Made by a program: the position numbers and the translations under genes. A DNA stretch of 64,000 nucleotides from a virus: positions 32,001 through 96,000 of the IMG/VR virus record IMGVR_UViG_3300030390_002309. One strand, written 5' to 3'. Shown in pieces: positions 25,497-35,609 of the stretch (within the stretch, counting starts at the first letter, position 1; each line of letters starts with the position of its first letter). The notes under the pieces were generated by a model. It had not been told where the DNA came from. It ran no database searches and saw nothing but the letters and a program-made list of their open reading frames with translations.

Positions 25497-26018
25497 TTAA
25501 TAACTATTTTTCATCCTACCACCTAATGGATTACCCACTTCTTGATAGTAACAATTGTAACATAATAACCTTAAGTTATCTCTTATATGATTTGTCCTAT
25601 CTCCATCAATCCAATCTAGTAATAATGGCACTGAATAATCTGATACCCTTCTTACACAATAACCACATGAGTTACATTCTTCTTCAAGAATAGCATTTTT
25701 AAGTAATCTTATCTTTAATCTGCTATGTGGATAATTAGGATACTTACCTTCTAGTATATCTAATAAACCATAATGGCCTCTTAGTCTAGGCTTTGTTGCT
25801 CTAGGTATTCCTTTTCCAGCCTTGTTCTTATGTAGTTCAAACAATGTTTTACCAGTTTCTGAATCTACATATAGTTTAGAATATTTCCTAAATGCTTCAT
25901 ATGAAACTTTAAGGAAACGAGCTGCGCCTGCACAAGATTGAGTATTGACCATTGCATATCGAATCTCAGACTCTGATATGTTCATTGGTGGTCTACCCTC
26001 TCCTGGCTTGAACGGCAT
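25497..26018 (-). CDS. HNH-like endonuclease with N-terminal HTH; catalytic His appears replaced
   Basis: CNSCG...LLLDWIDGDRTNH...NLRLLCYNC. Confidence 0.75.
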   Translation of the reverse strand: MPFKPGEGRPPMNISESEIRYAMVNTQSCAGAARFLKVSYEAFRKYSKLYVDSETGKTLFELHKNKAGKGIPRATKPRLRGHYGLLDILEGKYPNYPHSRLKIRLLKNAILEEECNSCGYCVRRVSDYSVPLLLDWIDGDRTNHIRDNLRLLCYNCYYQEVGNPLGGRMKNSY

Positions 26019-26022
26019 TATA

Positions 26023-26331
26023 TTATCCTTTTAGTAATTCTTTTGAATCATCTACTAAGTTGCGACTATTATAAAATTTATCTCTAGCCTTTGCTCTCAT
26101 AGACTCAACATATGTTTTTTCGTCCTTAGATAATGAACTCCAAAATGATTCAAACTCTCCACCTGGAGTATTCATATATCTAGTATATGCATCTTCAGTT
26201 TTGTCATCATTCATATGCTTAGCTAAAACTGTACCTAAAATAGTTGATGCTTTAGGTTGAACTGATATTCCGTTCTTCCCCATTGCAGTATACCATTCGT
26301 CCATAATCTGTGTTACTTTGTCTTTACTCAT
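26023..26331 (-). CDS. Hypothetical protein
   Basis: ORF after the tmRNA locus. Confidence 0.65.
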   Translation of the reverse strand: MSKDKVTQIMDEWYTAMGKNGISVQPKASTILGTVLAKHMNDDKTEDAYTRYMNTPGGEFESFWSSLSKDEKTYVESMRAKARDKFYNSRNLVDDSKELLKG

Positions 26332-26369
26332 AACTTATTCCTTTTTTTTATTATTTCCTCTATATCCTC

Positions 26370-26509
26370 CGAAGCTTAAACGGCATGCTTCTTCAACCGT
26401 CGGTCTTGGGTGCTTAATTAAGCAGCCATCGCCATGTTAACATGTTCGCCTGTTATTGCGTTGATCTTCATTATATCCTTATCATCATGTCAAATACCTG
26501 TTCATCCCC
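26370..26509 (-). ncRNA. ssrA: tmRNA coding piece of a permuted two-piece ssrA; tag (A)GEHVNMAMAA* at 26450-26418; 3' boundary approximate
   Basis: Starts GGGGATG-AACAGGTATTTGAC; AATAACA precedes resume codon GGC; ends GCTGCTTAA inside a hairpin; possible pseudoknot 26401-26371. Confidence 0.88.
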
Positions 26510-26514
26510 ATTTG

Positions 26515-26586
26515 TAGCCCGACGGAGAATCGAACTCCGGTTACATGGATGAAAACCATGCGTCCTAACCACTAGACGACCGGGCC
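26515..26586 (-). tRNA. trnE: tRNA-Glu(TTC), CCA not encoded; nested in the tmRNA intervening segment
   Basis: GGCCCGG/TCGGGCT acceptor, CATGG-TTTTCAT-CCATG anticodon arm, CGGAG-TTCGATT-CTCCG T-arm. Confidence 0.95.
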
Positions 26587-26600
26587 AATTTCCTACTTAG

Positions 26601-26660
26601 TGGAGATGGTGGGAGTCGAACCCACGTCCATTAATGCAGCTAATATAACTACTAACGATC
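26601..26660 (-). ncRNA. ssrA: tmRNA acceptor piece of a permuted two-piece ssrA; 5' boundary approximate
   Basis: GGAC-GTGGG-TTCGACT-CCCAC-CATCTCC-A; pairs with GGGGATG giving G3:U70 and A73. Confidence 0.88.
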
Positions 26661-26664
26661 ATTT

Positions 26665-26672
26665 ATAAATAT
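26665..26672 (-). promoter_or_regulatory. ATATTTAT putative late promoter for the tmRNA/tRNA-Glu precursor
   Basis: Same octamer precedes about 12 genes in intergenic gaps. Confidence 0.5.
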
Positions 26673-26673
26673 G

Positions 26674-27237
26674 CTACTTCAATCGTATATACTTCTTACC
26701 ACCTTTAAAATATATTGTACCAATTGGTATTTCATCTGTCAATGCCTTTCCTAACATATCATATGCTATATCATTATACCATCTAATACCATCTTCTTCA
26801 ATTACAAATCCAGGAATTCCTGTAGGAGTATTTCTCAACATTACAACCCATGTAAATAAATTGAAATCATATACTACCGAGTCACAGTAATTACACATCA
26901 TTATTGTTGAATCTAATTGATATATAAAAGCATCATAACATAATTTAACTGTATCTGATATTTGTATTAATGGAAATGAGTATGGATTATTTCCTTGACC
27001 TACATAACATGCAACATCATTACATGCAGTGAAGCTCCAATCTATTGCACCTACCATATTACCTATACCACCTGAACTTGGAGTTACAGTTAATGTTGTA
27101 TTTGGAAATATTGAATATGATAAAGAGTCACACCAATTATTAGTTTGTGCCTGTGACCTTGTTGACCATAATGTCAATACTGCTAGCCAAAATATAGCTA
27201 CTATAAAATAGCCTTTGTTCTTGTTAATTTTTTTCAT
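26674..27237 (-). CDS. Secreted protein with degenerate T9SS-type C-terminal tail
   Basis: Signal peptide (SQA-Q); YDMLGK...GTIYFKGGKKYI tail. Confidence 0.65.
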   Translation of the reverse strand: MKKINKNKGYFIVAIFWLAVLTLWSTRSQAQTNNWCDSLSYSIFPNTTLTVTPSSGGIGNMVGAIDWSFTACNDVACYVGQGNNPYSFPLIQISDTVKLCYDAFIYQLDSTIMMCNYCDSVVYDFNLFTWVVMLRNTPTGIPGFVIEEDGIRWYNDIAYDMLGKALTDEIPIGTIYFKGGKKYIRLK

Positions 27238-27245
27238 TTTTTCTT

Positions 27246-27593
27246 TTAAATAAATATTTCTGCCCCATTTTCATTATCTTCAAATACCGAGACATAGTTG
27301 CATTTGAACTCTTCTAATATTTCCTTCGCCAACATTTCACATGACTTGGCTCCGAACTCATGAGTTCTAGATTCAGAGTTAAAATATTCATGTTCTAGAT
27401 ATTGTATAATATCTCGTTTGAACATAATAAACTCTACATCTCTATCATCATGATGTACTTCTTTCTTAGCAGTTATAAACCATTTATGTCTATGCATGTT
27501 TGCTAAGAATCCTACTTCAGGAAATACAGCTTCAGCATCTGGCCAATTATGTAATCCTTCTATTTCTAATTTTGCTATAACGTTTGTTTTCAT
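27246..27593 (-). CDS. QueD/6-pyruvoyl-tetrahydropterin synthase-like T-fold protein (phage type)
   Basis: EGLHNWP, HRH, HDDRDVEFI and SCEMLA motifs. Confidence 0.6.
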   Translation of the reverse strand: MKTNVIAKLEIEGLHNWPDAEAVFPEVGFLANMHRHKWFITAKKEVHHDDRDVEFIMFKRDIIQYLEHEYFNSESRTHEFGAKSCEMLAKEILEEFKCNYVSVFEDNENGAEIFI

Positions 27594-31072: not shown

Positions 31073-32134
31073 CTAAAATATTATATAGTTAACGCCTACA
31101 CTAAAATCGTGCCAATTACGATTCCAGTACTTATTATATTTCCCTTCTAAAAATATACCTAAACTTTTATTAAACTTATGTCCAAATATTAAACCACCAC
31201 TATAATCAAACCACTGACCGCCATTGTATTTATGGTATGAGAACTGGCTATTGTCATTATAATGAAATGGTAATAAATTACCCCATGAATGTAACCAAAA
31301 TGTTTTTGTATAATGATAAAAGTCAAATCCAATTACTAATGAATGTTGCAAAGTATTATCTTGACCATCTCTTTTTCTTTCCGTGTAATCTGCTAACATT
31401 TTAGGTATGACTACACCTTCCCAAATTTCCGAACTTGTTGCAACTGAATTACCTGATGGGTCTAAATATTCAACTCCACCCTGTCCATCAAATTCTACAC
31501 TATATCCTTCTTGTATAGCTAAGAATGTATAATGTAAGTTGCCATTATCTAATAACCATTCTTCTAATGGATTATATCCATATGGTTCTGATAATCTCTG
31601 TGCTGCTCCTATATTAAAAGATAACTTACTGCCTACATTATATCTATATCTCTCTGATGCCTCAAAGTATCTAATATCAGCAAACCCATCTTCTAAATAT
31701 TCTACCTTTGCAATCCAATCATCAGCAACATATCTTAAAAAATGATGTTGATTTAAAAAAGATTGTCCTTGTTGTCGTTTCCAATCAACTTCAAATAGAA
31801 ATTCAAATCCTTTAACCTTTCCAATAGTTGCTGCATCTGAATATGAATTTTCTGTACCATCATAAAATACATCTGCTCTATTTTCATATCCTAGTCTAGC
31901 TATCTTCCTTAAACCTAATGTCATTGAATAATCAAATGGAGTTTCAATTGTTGTTGTAGTTAATCCATTTGTAACACTATATACATCTAAATCTGATACT
32001 GAATTACCTCCATTTATTGCTCCATAAAATGTTGCAAATTTGAATGTCTTTTTAAGATCAATCTGACCACAGCATTTCTTTGGAGCTGCACATCCAACTA
32101 AAACAACTAATAATAAAACTAATATTTTTTTCAT
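31073..32134 (-). CDS. Putative outer-membrane beta-barrel protein
   Basis: Signal peptide, aromatic-rich alternating strands, C-terminal FSVGVNYIIF. Confidence 0.7.
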   Translation of the reverse strand: MKKILVLLLVVLVGCAAPKKCCGQIDLKKTFKFATFYGAINGGNSVSDLDVYSVTNGLTTTTIETPFDYSMTLGLRKIARLGYENRADVFYDGTENSYSDAATIGKVKGFEFLFEVDWKRQQGQSFLNQHHFLRYVADDWIAKVEYLEDGFADIRYFEASERYRYNVGSKLSFNIGAAQRLSEPYGYNPLEEWLLDNGNLHYTFLAIQEGYSVEFDGQGGVEYLDPSGNSVATSSEIWEGVVIPKMLADYTERKRDGQDNTLQHSLVIGFDFYHYTKTFWLHSWGNLLPFHYNDNSQFSYHKYNGGQWFDYSGGLIFGHKFNKSLGIFLEGKYNKYWNRNWHDFSVGVNYIIF

Positions 32135-32153: not shown

Positions 32154-35100
32154 TTATTGTTTAACAACCCTTTTACTGTATCTAACATCCTTATAAAGTA
32201 TAGACATATTATATATACCATTCGGTAACTTAGATAAATCTAACCTTGTTGGATTAGACTCATTAATTATTAACTTACCAGTCATATCATATAATTCAAG
32301 ATCTATTTCTAATCTAGTATCTATATTTAATACATTTTCTGTTGGATTAGGATATACATGAATTCCTAATGCTGATATATTATCAATACCTACTGGCCAC
32401 CCATCTTGACAATAGTTATACATTGACTGACAATTTGCATCCCAATCACTAGTACAACAATAATTGTCTATATCTATCACCCAAGCATAACACCCGTCAT
32501 TCAACCAATAAGGTATCCCTGGTCCTCCATAACATCCGGCATCATATAAACATGCAGATGAATCAGAAACATTGGCGGCTGGATTGTAATTATATGCACT
32601 TACATCTGTACATCCTGGGACTGCAGTAATACAACTACCATCATCAAAACATGCATTAGGATTATAATTAACCGATGTTGGATCTGTACAACCTCCTATA
32701 TAACAACAACTATTATCTAATGTATTTGCCAATGGGTCAAAGTTCAATGCAGTATTATCTGTACACCCGTAAACAAATGGAATACAAGAACCATTGTCGG
32801 TATTGGCTAATGGGTCATAATTAAATGACGTTGAATCTGTACAACCAAATACTACAGAAATACAAGAACCATTATCTGTATTGGCTAATGGATTATAATT
32901 AAATGCTGTTGCATCCATACATCCATAAACAAATGGTACACAACTTCCATCATCTGTATTTGCTGCATTATTATAATTAAATGCTGTTACATCCATACAT
33001 CCATAAACAAATGGTACGCAACTTCCATCATCCAAGTTTGCAGTTGAGTCATAATTAAATGATAATGCATCTGTACAACCTAATACAATTGCAATACAAG
33101 ATCCATCATCTGTATTTGCAAGTGGATTGTAATTTAAAGAAGTTGAATCAGTACACCCTAATAATTGTGATATACATGAACCATCATTTGAATTTGCTAA
33201 AGGATTATAATTGATTGCTAATATATCTGTACAACCATATATGAAAGGAATACAACTTCCGTTATCTGTATTTGCAAGTGGATTGTAATTAAATGATGTT
33301 GAATCAGTACACCCATATACAACAGGAATACAACTTCCGTTATCCGTATTTGCTAAAGGATTGTAATTAAATGATAATGCATCAGTACAACCATTAATGA
33401 TTGGTATACAAGAATTGTTATCTGTATTTGCGTTAGAATCATAATTAAATGCTGTTGCATCCATACATCCATATATGATAGGGACACATGAGCCATCATC
33501 TACATTAGCACTTAAGTTATAATTAAATGCTGTTGGATCTGTACATCCATATATTGGATATACACACCCATTATTAACTGTTGCTGATGGGTCATAGTTT
33601 AATGCTAATGTATCCGTACAACCTATATAATAACAAGAGCCATCATCTGTATTTGCTAAACTATTATAGTTATCAGCTGTAGAATCAGTACATCCATTAA
33701 TAATAGGAATACAACTTCCATCATCTAGATTAGCAGTTGAATCATAATTAAATGCCAAATCATTTGTACATCCAAATATAAAAGGTATACAACTTCCGTC
33801 ATCAACATTAGCTAATGAATCATAATTAAATGATAATTGATCCATACATCCTAATACTGTTGGTATACAATAATCTCCACAAAAAGGTATTCCTGTATAT
33901 TTTACCCAAAATGGAGCAGCAAAAGATTGAAGAGCTCCTTGACCATTATTAGCAAAAGGATTTTGACCTTCATGCATTAATACAACACCATCTGCATTTG
34001 TTAGTTTAAATGAATTATGCCAAGTTTGAAATTGTACTTCTTCTGGTGGCTGTTGTGGTCCACCTACTTCAAAATAATATATTTCAACAGGCACTCCTGC
34101 ATCTAATATTAAAGGAAATGTATCTTGATAACTTCCTGGCCCCATTGTGAATGTACCAAAGTTAATTCCATTTTGATAAACACCTATATAAGAATTACCC
34201 CATCCATCTCCACCTGCATCTCCAATCCATAATTGATACTGGCAATCAGGAACAAGATCATTAATTGTTGCTGTTGGATCATAATTAAAAGCTGTTGAAT
34301 CTGTACATCCGTAGATATGAAGATTAGTACAAGTTGAATCATCTATTGTAGCTAATGGATTGTACTCTTGATAATCATCATCCATACAACCAAATACATC
34401 AGCATAAGTATTACAAGGAACTCCAAATTGTTGTCCTGAATATAAAGTATACCCAAATCCTGGATTGTCCATATACCATATTGTATCTCCATTACAATCA
34501 TATATTACTACCATACCATCCATGGATCCACCTGAAGTAGAACCTGCCATACCATCACCATAATCATCACTTAGTATGAATTCGAATCCTATAGTTTGAT
34601 CTATACAAAAAGTGTATGTATATGTTTGACCTACATCATTAAAGTTATATGTTCCAACAACAGCAGAATCAATTACACCTCCACTATTCATTATCCATGA
34701 TGTTTCATTTGGCCAATTGTCAAATGTTATCTCCATTGTTATTTGATATTCTGTGTAATCACATGTTGTTCCGGAACATGACCCATCATCTATTGTTGCC
34801 CATGGATTATAAGTTGGCTGAGATGGATCTGTACATCCTTCTATACATGATGTCGGTGTATATGTTATTGTATCAGAAAAACTACCATCTGCAAATTCTA
34901 CTACACCATAATGTTCTACGCTCCAATTAGGTGGCATTTGACCATTACCTGCATATACTGCAAAGTCGGTTGCATTAGGTCCAAGCCCATATTGAAATGG
35001 TCCTACTCCATTTGCATTAGAATACCAAAATCTAACTATATCACAACTTATGTTTGTTGTATCTACCTCCCAATTAAATGATACTAATGTTTGTCCACCA

Positions 35101-35609
35101 GGTAAGCATTGTTGTGATGCTCCAGATGTTAAAAATCCACCGCAGGGTGGAAAGATACATGAACCATCATCTACTAAAGCAGTTGAATCATAGTTAAGAG
35201 CGAAAGGATTTGTACAACCAAATGATGGAGGTGCACAAGGAAGTATTGTTACTGTAGTATCTCTTAAGAAAAATGAACCTAAAACCGGATCCCAATTAAT
35301 TATAAGACCTTGACAAATGTTTTTCATCTTAAATGAAGCAGGTTGCTGAGATATCCATCCATCTCCAAAATTGTCTGTTAAAGATATTGTATAGTCTCCA
35401 GACATTAAATTAATAATTGTATCTAGATATTCATATGGTTGAGTTGGTTGATAATAAAATGTAGAGTCTAGTGTACTATCACTAACCATAAAGAAATTAG
35501 ATTCAGTTGGAGCATAGAAGTCAAATTGAACTTGAAACCTAACCCATGAATCGTTTTGTCCAAATAATAATATTGGAATTAATGCTATTAATACTATTAA
35601 CTTTTTCAT
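32154..35609 (-). CDS. Large secreted Cys-repeat protein with T9SS type A C-terminal sorting domain
   Basis: Signal peptide; about 21 GCTD..A.NY...A..DDGSC repeats; VYPNPT...LYDMTGK...LPNGIY...KRVVK. Confidence 0.88.
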   Translation of the reverse strand: MKKLIVLIALIPILLFGQNDSWVRFQVQFDFYAPTESNFFMVSDSTLDSTFYYQPTQPYEYLDTIINLMSGDYTISLTDNFGDGWISQQPASFKMKNICQGLIINWDPVLGSFFLRDTTVTILPCAPPSFGCTNPFALNYDSTALVDDGSCIFPPCGGFLTSGASQQCLPGGQTLVSFNWEVDTTNISCDIVRFWYSNANGVGPFQYGLGPNATDFAVYAGNGQMPPNWSVEHYGVVEFADGSFSDTITYTPTSCIEGCTDPSQPTYNPWATIDDGSCSGTTCDYTEYQITMEITFDNWPNETSWIMNSGGVIDSAVVGTYNFNDVGQTYTYTFCIDQTIGFEFILSDDYGDGMAGSTSGGSMDGMVVIYDCNGDTIWYMDNPGFGYTLYSGQQFGVPCNTYADVFGCMDDDYQEYNPLATIDDSTCTNLHIYGCTDSTAFNYDPTATINDLVPDCQYQLWIGDAGGDGWGNSYIGVYQNGINFGTFTMGPGSYQDTFPLILDAGVPVEIYYFEVGGPQQPPEEVQFQTWHNSFKLTNADGVVLMHEGQNPFANNGQGALQSFAAPFWVKYTGIPFCGDYCIPTVLGCMDQLSFNYDSLANVDDGSCIPFIFGCTNDLAFNYDSTANLDDGSCIPIINGCTDSTADNYNSLANTDDGSCYYIGCTDTLALNYDPSATVNNGCVYPIYGCTDPTAFNYNLSANVDDGSCVPIIYGCMDATAFNYDSNANTDNNSCIPIINGCTDALSFNYNPLANTDNGSCIPVVYGCTDSTSFNYNPLANTDNGSCIPFIYGCTDILAINYNPLANSNDGSCISQLLGCTDSTSLNYNPLANTDDGSCIAIVLGCTDALSFNYDSTANLDDGSCVPFVYGCMDVTAFNYNNAANTDDGSCVPFVYGCMDATAFNYNPLANTDNGSCISVVFGCTDSTSFNYDPLANTDNGSCIPFVYGCTDNTALNFDPLANTLDNSCCYIGGCTDPTSVNYNPNACFDDGSCITAVPGCTDVSAYNYNPAANVSDSSACLYDAGCYGGPGIPYWLNDGCYAWVIDIDNYCCTSDWDANCQSMYNYCQDGWPVGIDNISALGIHVYPNPTENVLNIDTRLEIDLELYDMTGKLIINESNPTRLDLSKLPNGIYNMSILYKDVRYSKRVVKQ
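32550..33851 (-). repeat. 17 tandem ~78-bp coding repeats (GCxD...NY...A..D.GSC)
   Basis: Counted in the translation. Confidence 0.85.

Follow-up and report, generated by a model that had tools for sequence, protein, structure and literature searches.

The window analysed here, a stretch of 64,000 nucleotides (nt) corresponding to positions 32,001 to 96,000 of the IMG/VR virus record IMGVR_UViG_3300030390_002309, carries on its minus strand a permuted, two-piece gene for transfer-messenger RNA (tmRNA) in which a complete tRNA-Glu with anticodon UUC occupies the intervening segment (IVS) between the acceptor piece and the coding piece. We regard it as likely that the locus provides a large marine phage, probably one that infects Bacteroidota, with a working permuted tmRNA and, within its IVS, a working tRNA-Glu(UUC). 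Two-piece tmRNA is among the classic examples of permuted RNA genes, and its excised spacer has so far been treated as waste. The phage lineage described here appears to use that spacer to carry a selected tRNA, which can be swapped, lost or regained in place; thus, the precursor of one stable RNA can be the vehicle by which another is expressed and processed. The source record is a linear sequence of 129,594 bp, estimated in IMG/VR to be 73% complete and with a GC content of 31.6%, and the only RNA genes found in it by ARAGORN are a tRNA-Arg(UCU), the tRNA-Glu(UUC) and the tmRNA.

The calls of Rfam and ARAGORN agree on a permuted two-piece tmRNA with an intact tRNA-Glu in its intervening segment, as had been proposed in an earlier note made from the sequence letters, and every coordinate given there for the upstream motif, the pieces, the spacers, the tRNA and the tag is correct on the minus strand. 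Rfam places the family tmRNA_permuted (RF04321) at 26366-26660 with 58.8 bits against a gathering cut-off of 47 (E 7.4e-09); the match covers the full model, positions 1-213 of 213, and the tRNA appears as an insert in the IVS loop. ARAGORN reports a permuted tmRNA (tmRNA*) at 26327-26692(-) with the tag GEHVNMAMAA, and calls the tRNA-Glu inside it. When the tRNA is excised, ARAGORN still gives a permuted tmRNA, and when the pieces are re-joined in canonical order it gives a standard tmRNA, the tag being unchanged in both cases. The order of a tmRNA 3′ end, a gap and a tmRNA 5′ end was matched once in the window and not at all in 100 shuffles. It had been expected that annotation tools would report only the tRNA; in fact both programs report the tmRNA as well, and tmRNA calls that overlap a tRNA should not be rejected during annotation.

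The acceptor piece spans 60 nt (26601-26660), as placed by the RF04321 alignment, ARAGORN and the coordinates. It begins with the 3′ strands of helices P2c (26657-26660), P2b (26642-26649) and P2a (26629-26636), located by the RF04321 alignment and by covariation, and continues through the T arm GTGGG-TTCGACT-CCCAC (26609-26625) to the acceptor 3′ strand CATCTCC (26602-26608) and the discriminator A73 (26601). The IVS opens with a 14-nt spacer 1, CTAAGTAGGAAATT (26587-26600), in which A73 is followed by CTA where CCA would be. The complete tRNA-Glu of 72 nt (26515-26586) was recognized by ARAGORN, by the Rfam model RF00005 and in the minimum free energy (MFE) fold, and the 5-nt spacer 2, CAAAT (26510-26514), separates its discriminator from G1 of the tmRNA. 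CCA is encoded for neither RNA in the window. The coding piece (26366-26509), whose 3′ end is not sharply defined and lies near 26366, starts at G1 (26509) with the acceptor 5′ strand GGGGATG (26503-26509), followed by its own strands of P2a (26483-26489), P2b (26470-26477) and P2c (26463-26466). Next come the tag frame called by ARAGORN (26418-26450), composed of the resume codon GGC (26450), the tag GEHVNMAMAA and the stop codon TAA (26420-26418), then a hairpin spanning the stop codon (26412-26423) and a pseudoknot-like element (about 26371-26401) with which the piece ends near 26366. The acceptor stem formed between the pieces has 7 bp, GGGGATG/CATCTCC-A, and contains G3:U70 and A73, the alanine identity elements to which the earlier note had drawn attention. 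Together the two tmRNA pieces amount to about 200 nt. In the MFE fold of the 299-nt precursor the tmRNA acceptor stem closes around the complete tRNA-Glu cloverleaf.

The gene of the window is one of a lineage. A first pattern scan of viral contigs, based on a tmRNA 3′ end, a gap, a T loop, a second gap and a tmRNA 5′ end, yielded 21 contigs, and among them ARAGORN called tRNA-Ala(UGC) nested in a permuted tmRNA in three (L123, L127 and L132, all plainly homologous to the tmRNA gene of the window), a permuted tmRNA without tRNA in 14, and no tmRNA in four. A word specific to the lineage's acceptor piece, itself of the TTATATTAGCT type, was present in 34 viral contigs, or 35 with that of the window, and a search of metagenomes targeted at members with a tRNA gave 77 contigs, 56 of them in the lineage and 21 unrelated chance matches. 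The permuted order of the pieces is common to all 91 lineage contigs. Their IVS contains tRNA-Ala(UGC) in 39 and tRNA-Glu(UUC) in 10, measures 17-23 nt in 36 and is a 69-nt non-tRNA segment in two; the other four were left without a class, three of them (L195, L200 and L220) ending before G1 with a tRNA-Ala called by ARAGORN after the acceptor piece, and the last (L161) looking like a deletion. The 35 viral contigs comprise 28 with a 17-23-nt IVS, two with the 69-nt non-tRNA segment, three with tRNA-Ala, the window with tRNA-Glu and one without a class, and the 56 metagenome members comprise 36 with tRNA-Ala, nine with tRNA-Glu, eight with a short IVS and three that end before G1. The frequency of tRNA carriage can be read only from the viral contigs (4/35), the metagenome scan having been targeted at tRNA carriers. 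From the nine metagenome cases of tRNA-Glu, six have the 91-nt IVS of the window and three have tRNA-Glu followed by a 69-nt AT-rich spacer. The lineage tags include GEQVEMAMAA, GEQVELAMAA, GEHVEMAMAA, GAQVEMAMAA and GEHVNMAMAA; most of those called by ARAGORN end in AMAA, the exceptions being a few calls whose tags are long or odd. The tRNA starts 3-7 nt after A73 in all 39 tRNA-Ala cases and 14 nt after it in the Glu forms, and its discriminator lies 5 nt from G1 in the window and about 7-13 nt from it in the tRNA-Ala forms. The 69-nt non-tRNA segments (L160:8968-9160(-) and L167:5685-5877(-)) contain repeated words of the ATATTCA/TATAAT type and may represent a different small insert in the same slot.

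Selection on the tmRNA was analysed in an alignment of 66 distinct lineage genes extending from P2c to the resume codon, IVS included, by counting the pairs of the acceptor stem, the T stem and P2a-c. Standard pairs are formed in 97.3% of 2031 cells, and changes on both sides occur in 12 of the 31 pairs (190 cells), against at most four pairs and 22 cells in controls with the partners slid by 1-3 columns. None of 500 shuffles reached the observed percentage of pairing, the number of pairs and cells changed on both sides or the covariation score, while the number of further pair types was reached by 39 of the 500. G3:U70 is present in 66 of 66 genes and A73 is invariant, whereas the fifth acceptor pair alternates between A-U (35), G-C (28) and C-G (2). 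The T stem is fully paired (100%), with two covarying pairs, and P2a-c are paired in 88-100% of cells, with nine covarying pairs, P2a being the weakest helix (88%). The P2 pairings noted earlier (CATTaATG with CATGATG, and GTTATATT with GATATAAT) covary in the distinct relatives, and so does an additional GATC/GATC helix, P2c, which occurs in the variants GATC/GATC, GAAC/GTTC, GACC/GGTC and GGTC/GACC. Further downstream, the second pseudoknot stem GAAGC/GCTTC becomes GAAGT/ACTTC in L164 and L212, two of the 23 distinct sequences of the 3′ part. To judge from these substitution patterns, the tmRNA helices are under structural selection.

The nested tRNAs show a comparable picture. The 39 copies of tRNA-Ala reduce to 18 distinct sequences, in which 99.7% of the cloverleaf cells are paired and neither G3:U70 nor the anticodon loop varies. 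Compensatory changes affect 6 of 21 pairs, four of them in the anticodon stem; slid controls gave 0-1 such pairs. The tRNA-Glu of the window scores 59.3 bits with RF00005, the gathering cut-off being 29, and ARAGORN places its anticodon, ttc in the DNA, at position 34 within a 7-nt loop. Its 72 nt are identical in the 10 Glu-bearing contigs, that of the window included, while the same contigs hold five variants of the 14-nt spacer and seven of the first 140 nt of the coding piece. Identity of the tRNA between diverged flanks fits selection but yields no covariation. Taken at face value, the alignments indicate that the nested tRNAs are under selection. In seven of the 10 contigs a CCA for the tmRNA is encoded at spacer 1, and CAAAT as spacer 2 is likewise common to seven; since L202 (8176-8454(-)), L226 and L233 have instead a 69-nt AT-rich spacer between tRNA-Glu and G1, the tRNA can lie at different distances from G1. 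Inverted ACATATAAT-like repeats are found within this longer spacer.

Passages of PMC11915505 describe permuted tmRNA precursors as being cut by tRNA-processing enzymes into two base-paired pieces. The earlier note had proposed for the locus in the window that one precursor yields three RNAs, and this is the most economical reading, and a likely one: the spacers are too short for promoters, and the parts are not separated by any real terminator-like site (the single match, which is spurious, corresponds to the D arm of the tRNA), so that a single transcript would comprise all three. What needs amendment is the proposal that RNase P frees the 3′ ends, because RNase P cuts alone would not be expected to make mature ones. 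We propose the following model, in which co-transcription, the order of cleavage, aminoacylation and tagging are inferred. One RNA would be transcribed through the acceptor piece, then the tRNA, then the coding piece. The tmRNA pieces would pair through the acceptor stem and P2a-c, so that the tRNA would stand as a cloverleaf in the loop closing the acceptor stem of the tmRNA. Host tRNA-processing enzymes would then release three RNAs. RNase P would cut at position +1 of the tRNA, leaving the acceptor piece with a short trailer, and at G1 of the tmRNA, leaving the tRNA with a short trailer as well; a 3′ endonuclease or exonucleases would trim these trailers, of 14 and 5 nt, respectively, and the CCA-adding enzyme would complete both 3′ ends, an addition that is needed because neither CCA is encoded in the window. 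The two-piece tmRNA would be charged with alanine by virtue of G3:U70 and A73 and, together with SmpB, which is assumed to be that of the host, would tag stalled proteins with (A)GEHVNMAMAA. The tRNA-Glu would decode GAA, one of the most used codons of the phage. In a crude set of open reading frames (ORFs), GAA ranks fourth, at 51 per 1000 (GAG, 11), and AGA and GCA dominate their own codon families. The locus thereby offers a testable system for the action of RNase P and 3′-end enzymes on a tRNA nested within a tRNA-like domain, for the use of a minimal tmRNA without pseudoknot 1 by phages of Bacteroidota, and for the origin of permuted RNA genes.

Whether the coupling of the two RNAs matters is the only point in which this model differs from an alternative that we consider a serious, though less favoured, possibility, namely that the tRNA is a neutral or selfish passenger in a slot that is safe, transcribed and excised automatically, both RNAs working but their linkage being non-adaptive. 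The history of the slot bears on the choice. A midpoint-rooted tree was built from the tmRNA columns only, the IVS being omitted (66 rows, 125 columns). All seven distinct genes with tRNA-Glu fall in a single clade (support 100/98), which is nested in a clade of otherwise 11 Ala-bearing genes (97/87), with Ala-bearing genes as the successive outgroups; the simplest reading, suggested by this topology, is that tRNA-Ala was replaced once by tRNA-Glu together with both spacers. Between tRNA-Ala and a short IVS the tree requires 11 changes, at least six of them forced by well-supported branches, and near-identical tmRNAs exist with and without a tRNA, such as those of L166 and L254; with so few columns and a midpoint root, the direction of each gain or loss is not established. 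Such traffic speaks for the passenger, as do other inserts in the slot, the 69 nt of L160 and L167 and the extra 69-nt spacer of L202, L226 and L233. The exchange probably proceeds by recombination between the conserved halves of the tmRNA. On the other hand, the start of tRNA-Ala 3-7 nt after A73 in 39 of 39 cases would suit an RNase P cut that shortens the 3′ trailer of the tmRNA. This tight spacing speaks for a role of the tRNA in maturation, and the 28 of 35 viral-contig members that have no tRNA speak against a requirement for it.

A broader reading goes further, and we put it forward as tentative and rather doubtful as a whole. The IVS of phage two-piece tmRNAs would be a general slot for exchangeable tRNA cargo. 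In the present lineage the tRNA would act as a processing handle that defines both new ends of the tmRNA, with an RNase P site 3-14 nt after the discriminator and the 3′ end of the tRNA 5-13 nt before G1, and a rescue RNA and a heavily used tRNA would be delivered in a 1:1 ratio from one promoter. The slot would be refilled by recombination, Ala having given way to Glu once and Ala having been lost or gained at least six times. The lineage might even represent a separate origin of the permutation, the tRNA being a remnant of a tandem duplication. Under the tandem-duplication model for permuted RNA genes, summarised in PMC3978253, the IVS would come to contain any tRNA that lay between the two copies, which makes this a possible origin of the nested tRNA.

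Several observations weigh against the model of two working RNAs. The gap from P2c to the resume codon GGC measures 12 nt only (AACGCAATAACA), so that pseudoknot 1 has no room, and in a tmRNA as unusually small as this one full trans-translation activity is not assured; the RF04321 model itself contains no pseudoknots, and the missing pseudoknot 1 does not bar membership of the family. A search of the 129.6-kb contig, whose estimated completeness is 73%, found no SmpB (PF01668). By its MFE energy the precursor does not stand out from shuffled sequences (z = −0.27), and its MFE fold lacks the P2 helices. The acceptor stem of the tRNA-Glu has, unusually, a G·U pair at both ends (1:72 and 7:66), and the identity of this tRNA in 10 contigs could be due in part to recent spread by recombination. 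The small size, the missing pseudoknot 1 and the lack of SmpB in the contig would also suit a tmRNA-like gene inactive in trans-translation, be it a decaying relic split by the tRNA, a decoy for host SmpB or alanyl-tRNA synthetase, or another kind of regulator; a phage mini-tmRNA, that of DS6A, is described in a passage of PMC11915505 as inhibiting the host tmRNA. We consider this improbable: the helices covary, the tag frame and its stop codon are kept across the lineage, including the 49 tRNA-bearing contigs, and G3:U70 and A73 are invariant. A relic in particular is unlikely because it would keep neither compensatory changes nor an open tag frame.

A further point on the same side comes from four marine metatranscriptome runs, in which Logan contigs gave only low-depth or non-specific cover over 25900-27300, with no mapped ends. 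The cover at 26600-26634 consists mostly of pieces of 31-34 nt with three mismatches, which correspond to tmRNA ends of other organisms. Exact pieces reach a depth of about 2; one contig of 151 nt (X16, record 9) covers 26582-26732 and thus includes the acceptor piece and the last part of the upstream ORF, but extends only 19 letters past A73. These contigs show no RNA ends and DNA carry-over is possible, so they allow no conclusion on transcription or processing.

Concerning the phage itself, a protein of 1151 amino acids (aa) encoded at 32154-35609(-) of the window ends in a type A sorting domain of the type IX secretion system (T9SS; TIGR04183, 41.8 bits against a cut-off of 23). T9SS is a system of Bacteroidota, whose members generally have one-piece tmRNA. 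The presence of this domain in a phage protein suggests that the host is probably a marine member of Bacteroidota. For GENNYALAA, which we take to be a Bacteroidota tag, no paper was found, and the label 'Bacteroidota-type tag' used in the earlier note is therefore tentative. Among 50,697 deposited phage records no close relative was found; queries with the tmRNA pieces and with the 187-aa protein encoded upstream returned tRNA-Glu, chance matches or nothing. The stretch is present at least partly in 20 public runs from 13 studies, with at least half of the sampled words in six runs, and the 20 are marine or seawater metagenomes, one being labelled aquatic. Although the window derives from a metagenome-assembled viral contig, the chance that assembly joined a tRNA into an ordinary tmRNA or rearranged a one-piece ssrA is negligible, given this recurrence, the permuted order in all 91 contigs and the same order of acceptor piece, tRNA-Glu and coding piece in nine other metagenome contigs that differ in spacers and flanks.

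Nesting of a tRNA has one published precedent among those we found. A passage of PMC11915505 (2025) describes as 'unique' a permuted tmRNA of GCA-2688965__sp002688965.2, a nominally archaeal metagenome-assembled genome (MAG), with an intact tRNA-Ala in its IVS. This case, together with the 39 tRNA-Ala and nine further tRNA-Glu cases found here, overturns the earlier statement that no functional tRNA in that loop was known. Both systems combine a permuted tmRNA with a complete, high-scoring tRNA in the IVS, and tRNA-Ala is the commonest form of the present lineage; the published gene may therefore be a member of this lineage binned into an archaeal MAG. It is a single case, to which the passage gives one sentence with no host, mechanism or relatives, whereas the gene described here has tRNA-Glu, a phage as carrier and a lineage with gain, loss and swap. 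No further case of a tRNA in the IVS was found in our searches of the literature on permuted or two-piece tmRNA beyond PMC11915505, whose supplementary lists may hold more. A scan of genome contigs gave 13 stretches, all of them tandem tRNA clusters or a tRNA beside a one-piece tmRNA, with none nested, and the archaeal-MAG case was not recovered by it. What is new here is the tRNA-Glu, the carriage by a phage lineage, probably of Bacteroidota, with a minimal tmRNA, the selection apparent on both RNAs, one swap, and repeated gain or loss in place.

Two-piece tmRNAs as such are known from Alphaproteobacteria, some Betaproteobacteria and marine cyanobacteria and from phages of these groups such as Melnitz (PMC9004378; Keiler 2000 and Sharkady & Williams 2004, as cited in later papers). 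PMC9004378 counts 53 two-piece forms among 133 unique phage tmRNAs, mostly from marine samples. The alpha, beta and cyanobacterial forms share with the present lineage the order acceptor piece-IVS-coding piece, the holding together of the pieces by the acceptor stem and P2, the removal of the IVS by tRNA enzymes and the match to RF04321. They differ in their tags, AND...ALAA or ANNIV..., whereas those of the lineage start with GE or GA and mostly end in AMAA; in addition, the tmRNA of the lineage is far smaller and lacks pseudoknot 1, and the host is probably in Bacteroidota. The short-IVS member L164 scores 67.5 bits with RF04321, and beta_tmRNA matches only its tRNA-like core, positions 81-162 of 331 with 43.8 bits against 84; no alpha_tmRNA or cyano_tmRNA match was listed by Rfam (RF01849, RF01850 and RF01851 tested), four lower-scoring matches of the same clan not being displayed. 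As a control, phage tmRNAs of the alpha and beta type scored 66.8 and 98.4 bits on the clade models. By these scores the lineage is a permuted tmRNA type outside the three clade-specific models.

The earlier note knew of no permuted form with a Bacteroidota-type tag; for this host range such a view does not hold, since ARAGORN calls as permuted the tmRNA of Chryseobacterium phage MA9V-3 (GenBank PV245944.1), with the tag GNVIDINKYVAKLEVAA and an IVS of about 60 nt without tRNA. The phage is in culture, its host belongs to Bacteroidota and its tmRNA is permuted; it differs from the present case in its tag and in its tRNA-free IVS. Where its paper (PMC13120357) deals with tmRNA or SsrA, a permuted form is not mentioned. 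The tmRNA gene of Cellulophaga phage Calle_1 is in one piece. Two other arrangements invite comparison. In polycistronic tRNA operons and phage tRNA clusters, adjacent tRNA units are separated by RNase P and 3′-end trimming, and here too tRNA-shaped units lie a few nt apart on what would be one transcript; however, one of the units is split, with its 3′ half before the tRNA and its 5′ half after it, and the tRNA is situated inside the loop of the acceptor stem. The tmRNA genes with group I introns in the T loop, mentioned in a passage of PMC11915505, resemble the present case in that a foreign structured RNA is removed during maturation. The intron is spliced and the exons are ligated, whereas in the present case no ligation would take place and the element removed would be a useful RNA.

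Directly upstream of the acceptor piece lies the AT-rich motif ATATTTATAAAT (26661-26672(-)). Across 87 lineage loci (62 distinct sequences) its RTATATTTATAWWT columns are 80-93% conserved and the sequence further upstream is not. The motif may be a candidate promoter element or leader, and the transcript probably starts just after it. The 64-kb window has a single copy where chance predicts 1.33, so the motif is no general promoter word of the phage. A site TTGACA-17-TACAAT (26714-26742(-)), with an extended −10 and 11 of 12 matches, lies in the 3′-terminal part of the upstream ORF, some 50 nt ahead of the acceptor piece; it was rejected as a promoter, as the region contains 11 sites of the sigma-70 type with 7.3 expected and this consensus would not be used by a Bacteroidota host.

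The upstream neighbour, a protein of 187 aa (26674-27237(-)) for which family searches found no match, is variable among relatives: in the other tRNA-Glu contigs it is 30-83% identical, with matches in nine of the 10 of the class, window included. Downstream, a gene for a 102-aa protein (26023-26331(-)), 59-90% identical to that of the window among the tRNA-Glu contigs, starts 35 nt past the last conserved bases of the tmRNA, and an HNH-like protein of 173 aa (25497-26018(-); phrog_14736 and phrog_10822) is encoded two genes downstream of the tmRNA. The latter is 96.5-97.7% identical among the tRNA-Glu contigs while the 187-aa protein falls to 30%, so the divergence around the tmRNA is mosaic. 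The order MazG-like 115-aa protein, variable 187-aa protein, tmRNA, 102-aa protein and 173-aa HNH-like protein is shared by members with tRNA-Glu, with tRNA-Ala and with a short IVS, from which it follows that the content of the IVS changed in place. The 115-aa neighbour is a widespread MazG-like protein and is uninformative on the host.

Spacers of other permuted tmRNAs were surveyed as well. A scan for permuted tmRNAs with an IVS of 75-105 nt gave at least 119 stretches, but its pattern, ending in GG, excluded the tRNA-Ala relatives and makes it weak evidence on the frequency of nesting. Among the matches listed, ARAGORN gave a tmRNA to 108 of 120 loci (that of the window included), nearly all with AND-type tags, and no nested tRNA other than the window's own; in L040 a non-permuted tmRNA called over three tRNAs was judged spurious. 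Relaxed patterns showed that nested tRNAs are not confined to this lineage. Of 15 viral loci newly retrieved, 10 (L260-L262, L265, L266, L268, L270-L272 and L274) have a tRNA-Tyr(gta) nested in a permuted tmRNA with a cyanobacterial-looking tag of the form AKTSD.AANNIVAFSRTR.LATA, namely AKTSDTAANNIVAFSRTRELATA or a near variant, and in nine of these 10 (not in L265) a tRNA-Thr ends about 20 nt inside the tmRNA start given by ARAGORN. L259 (4038-4483(+)) has a permuted tmRNA with the tag EEGQNRVNANQIKPFARKTSLAVA and a nested gene of 95 nt that ARAGORN calls tRNA-Ile(tat), unusually long for class I. Nesting of tRNAs in phage tmRNA spacers thus occurs in at least three lineages.

Other loci recovered on the way have structures of their own. 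In L121, L122, L018, L083, L093, L097, L128 and L135, alpha- or beta-type IVSs of 85-98 nt have a closing stem of 12-13 bp and a T-arm-like hairpin with a loop of the GGTTCGAATCC type. Rfam called no IVS a tRNA at E ≤ 0.01 in L121, L018, L093, L128 and L131; the 85-98-nt segments may guide processing as tRNA mimics or be degenerate tRNAs. The GC-rich viral contigs L124 (4950-5330(-)), L125 and L130, in which ARAGORN called neither tRNA nor tmRNA at the elements concerned, contain three tandem tRNA-like 3′ halves (GCGGGTTCGATTCCCGTC...CTCCA), each after a GGTGCTTTGGTAAGCGCC-like sequence. Finally, in the tRNA cluster of a 164-kb viral contig (L131:8535-8647(+)), a stretch of 113 nt matches RF00023 end to end with 23.5 bits, below the cut-off, and may be a mini-tmRNA without a tag frame.

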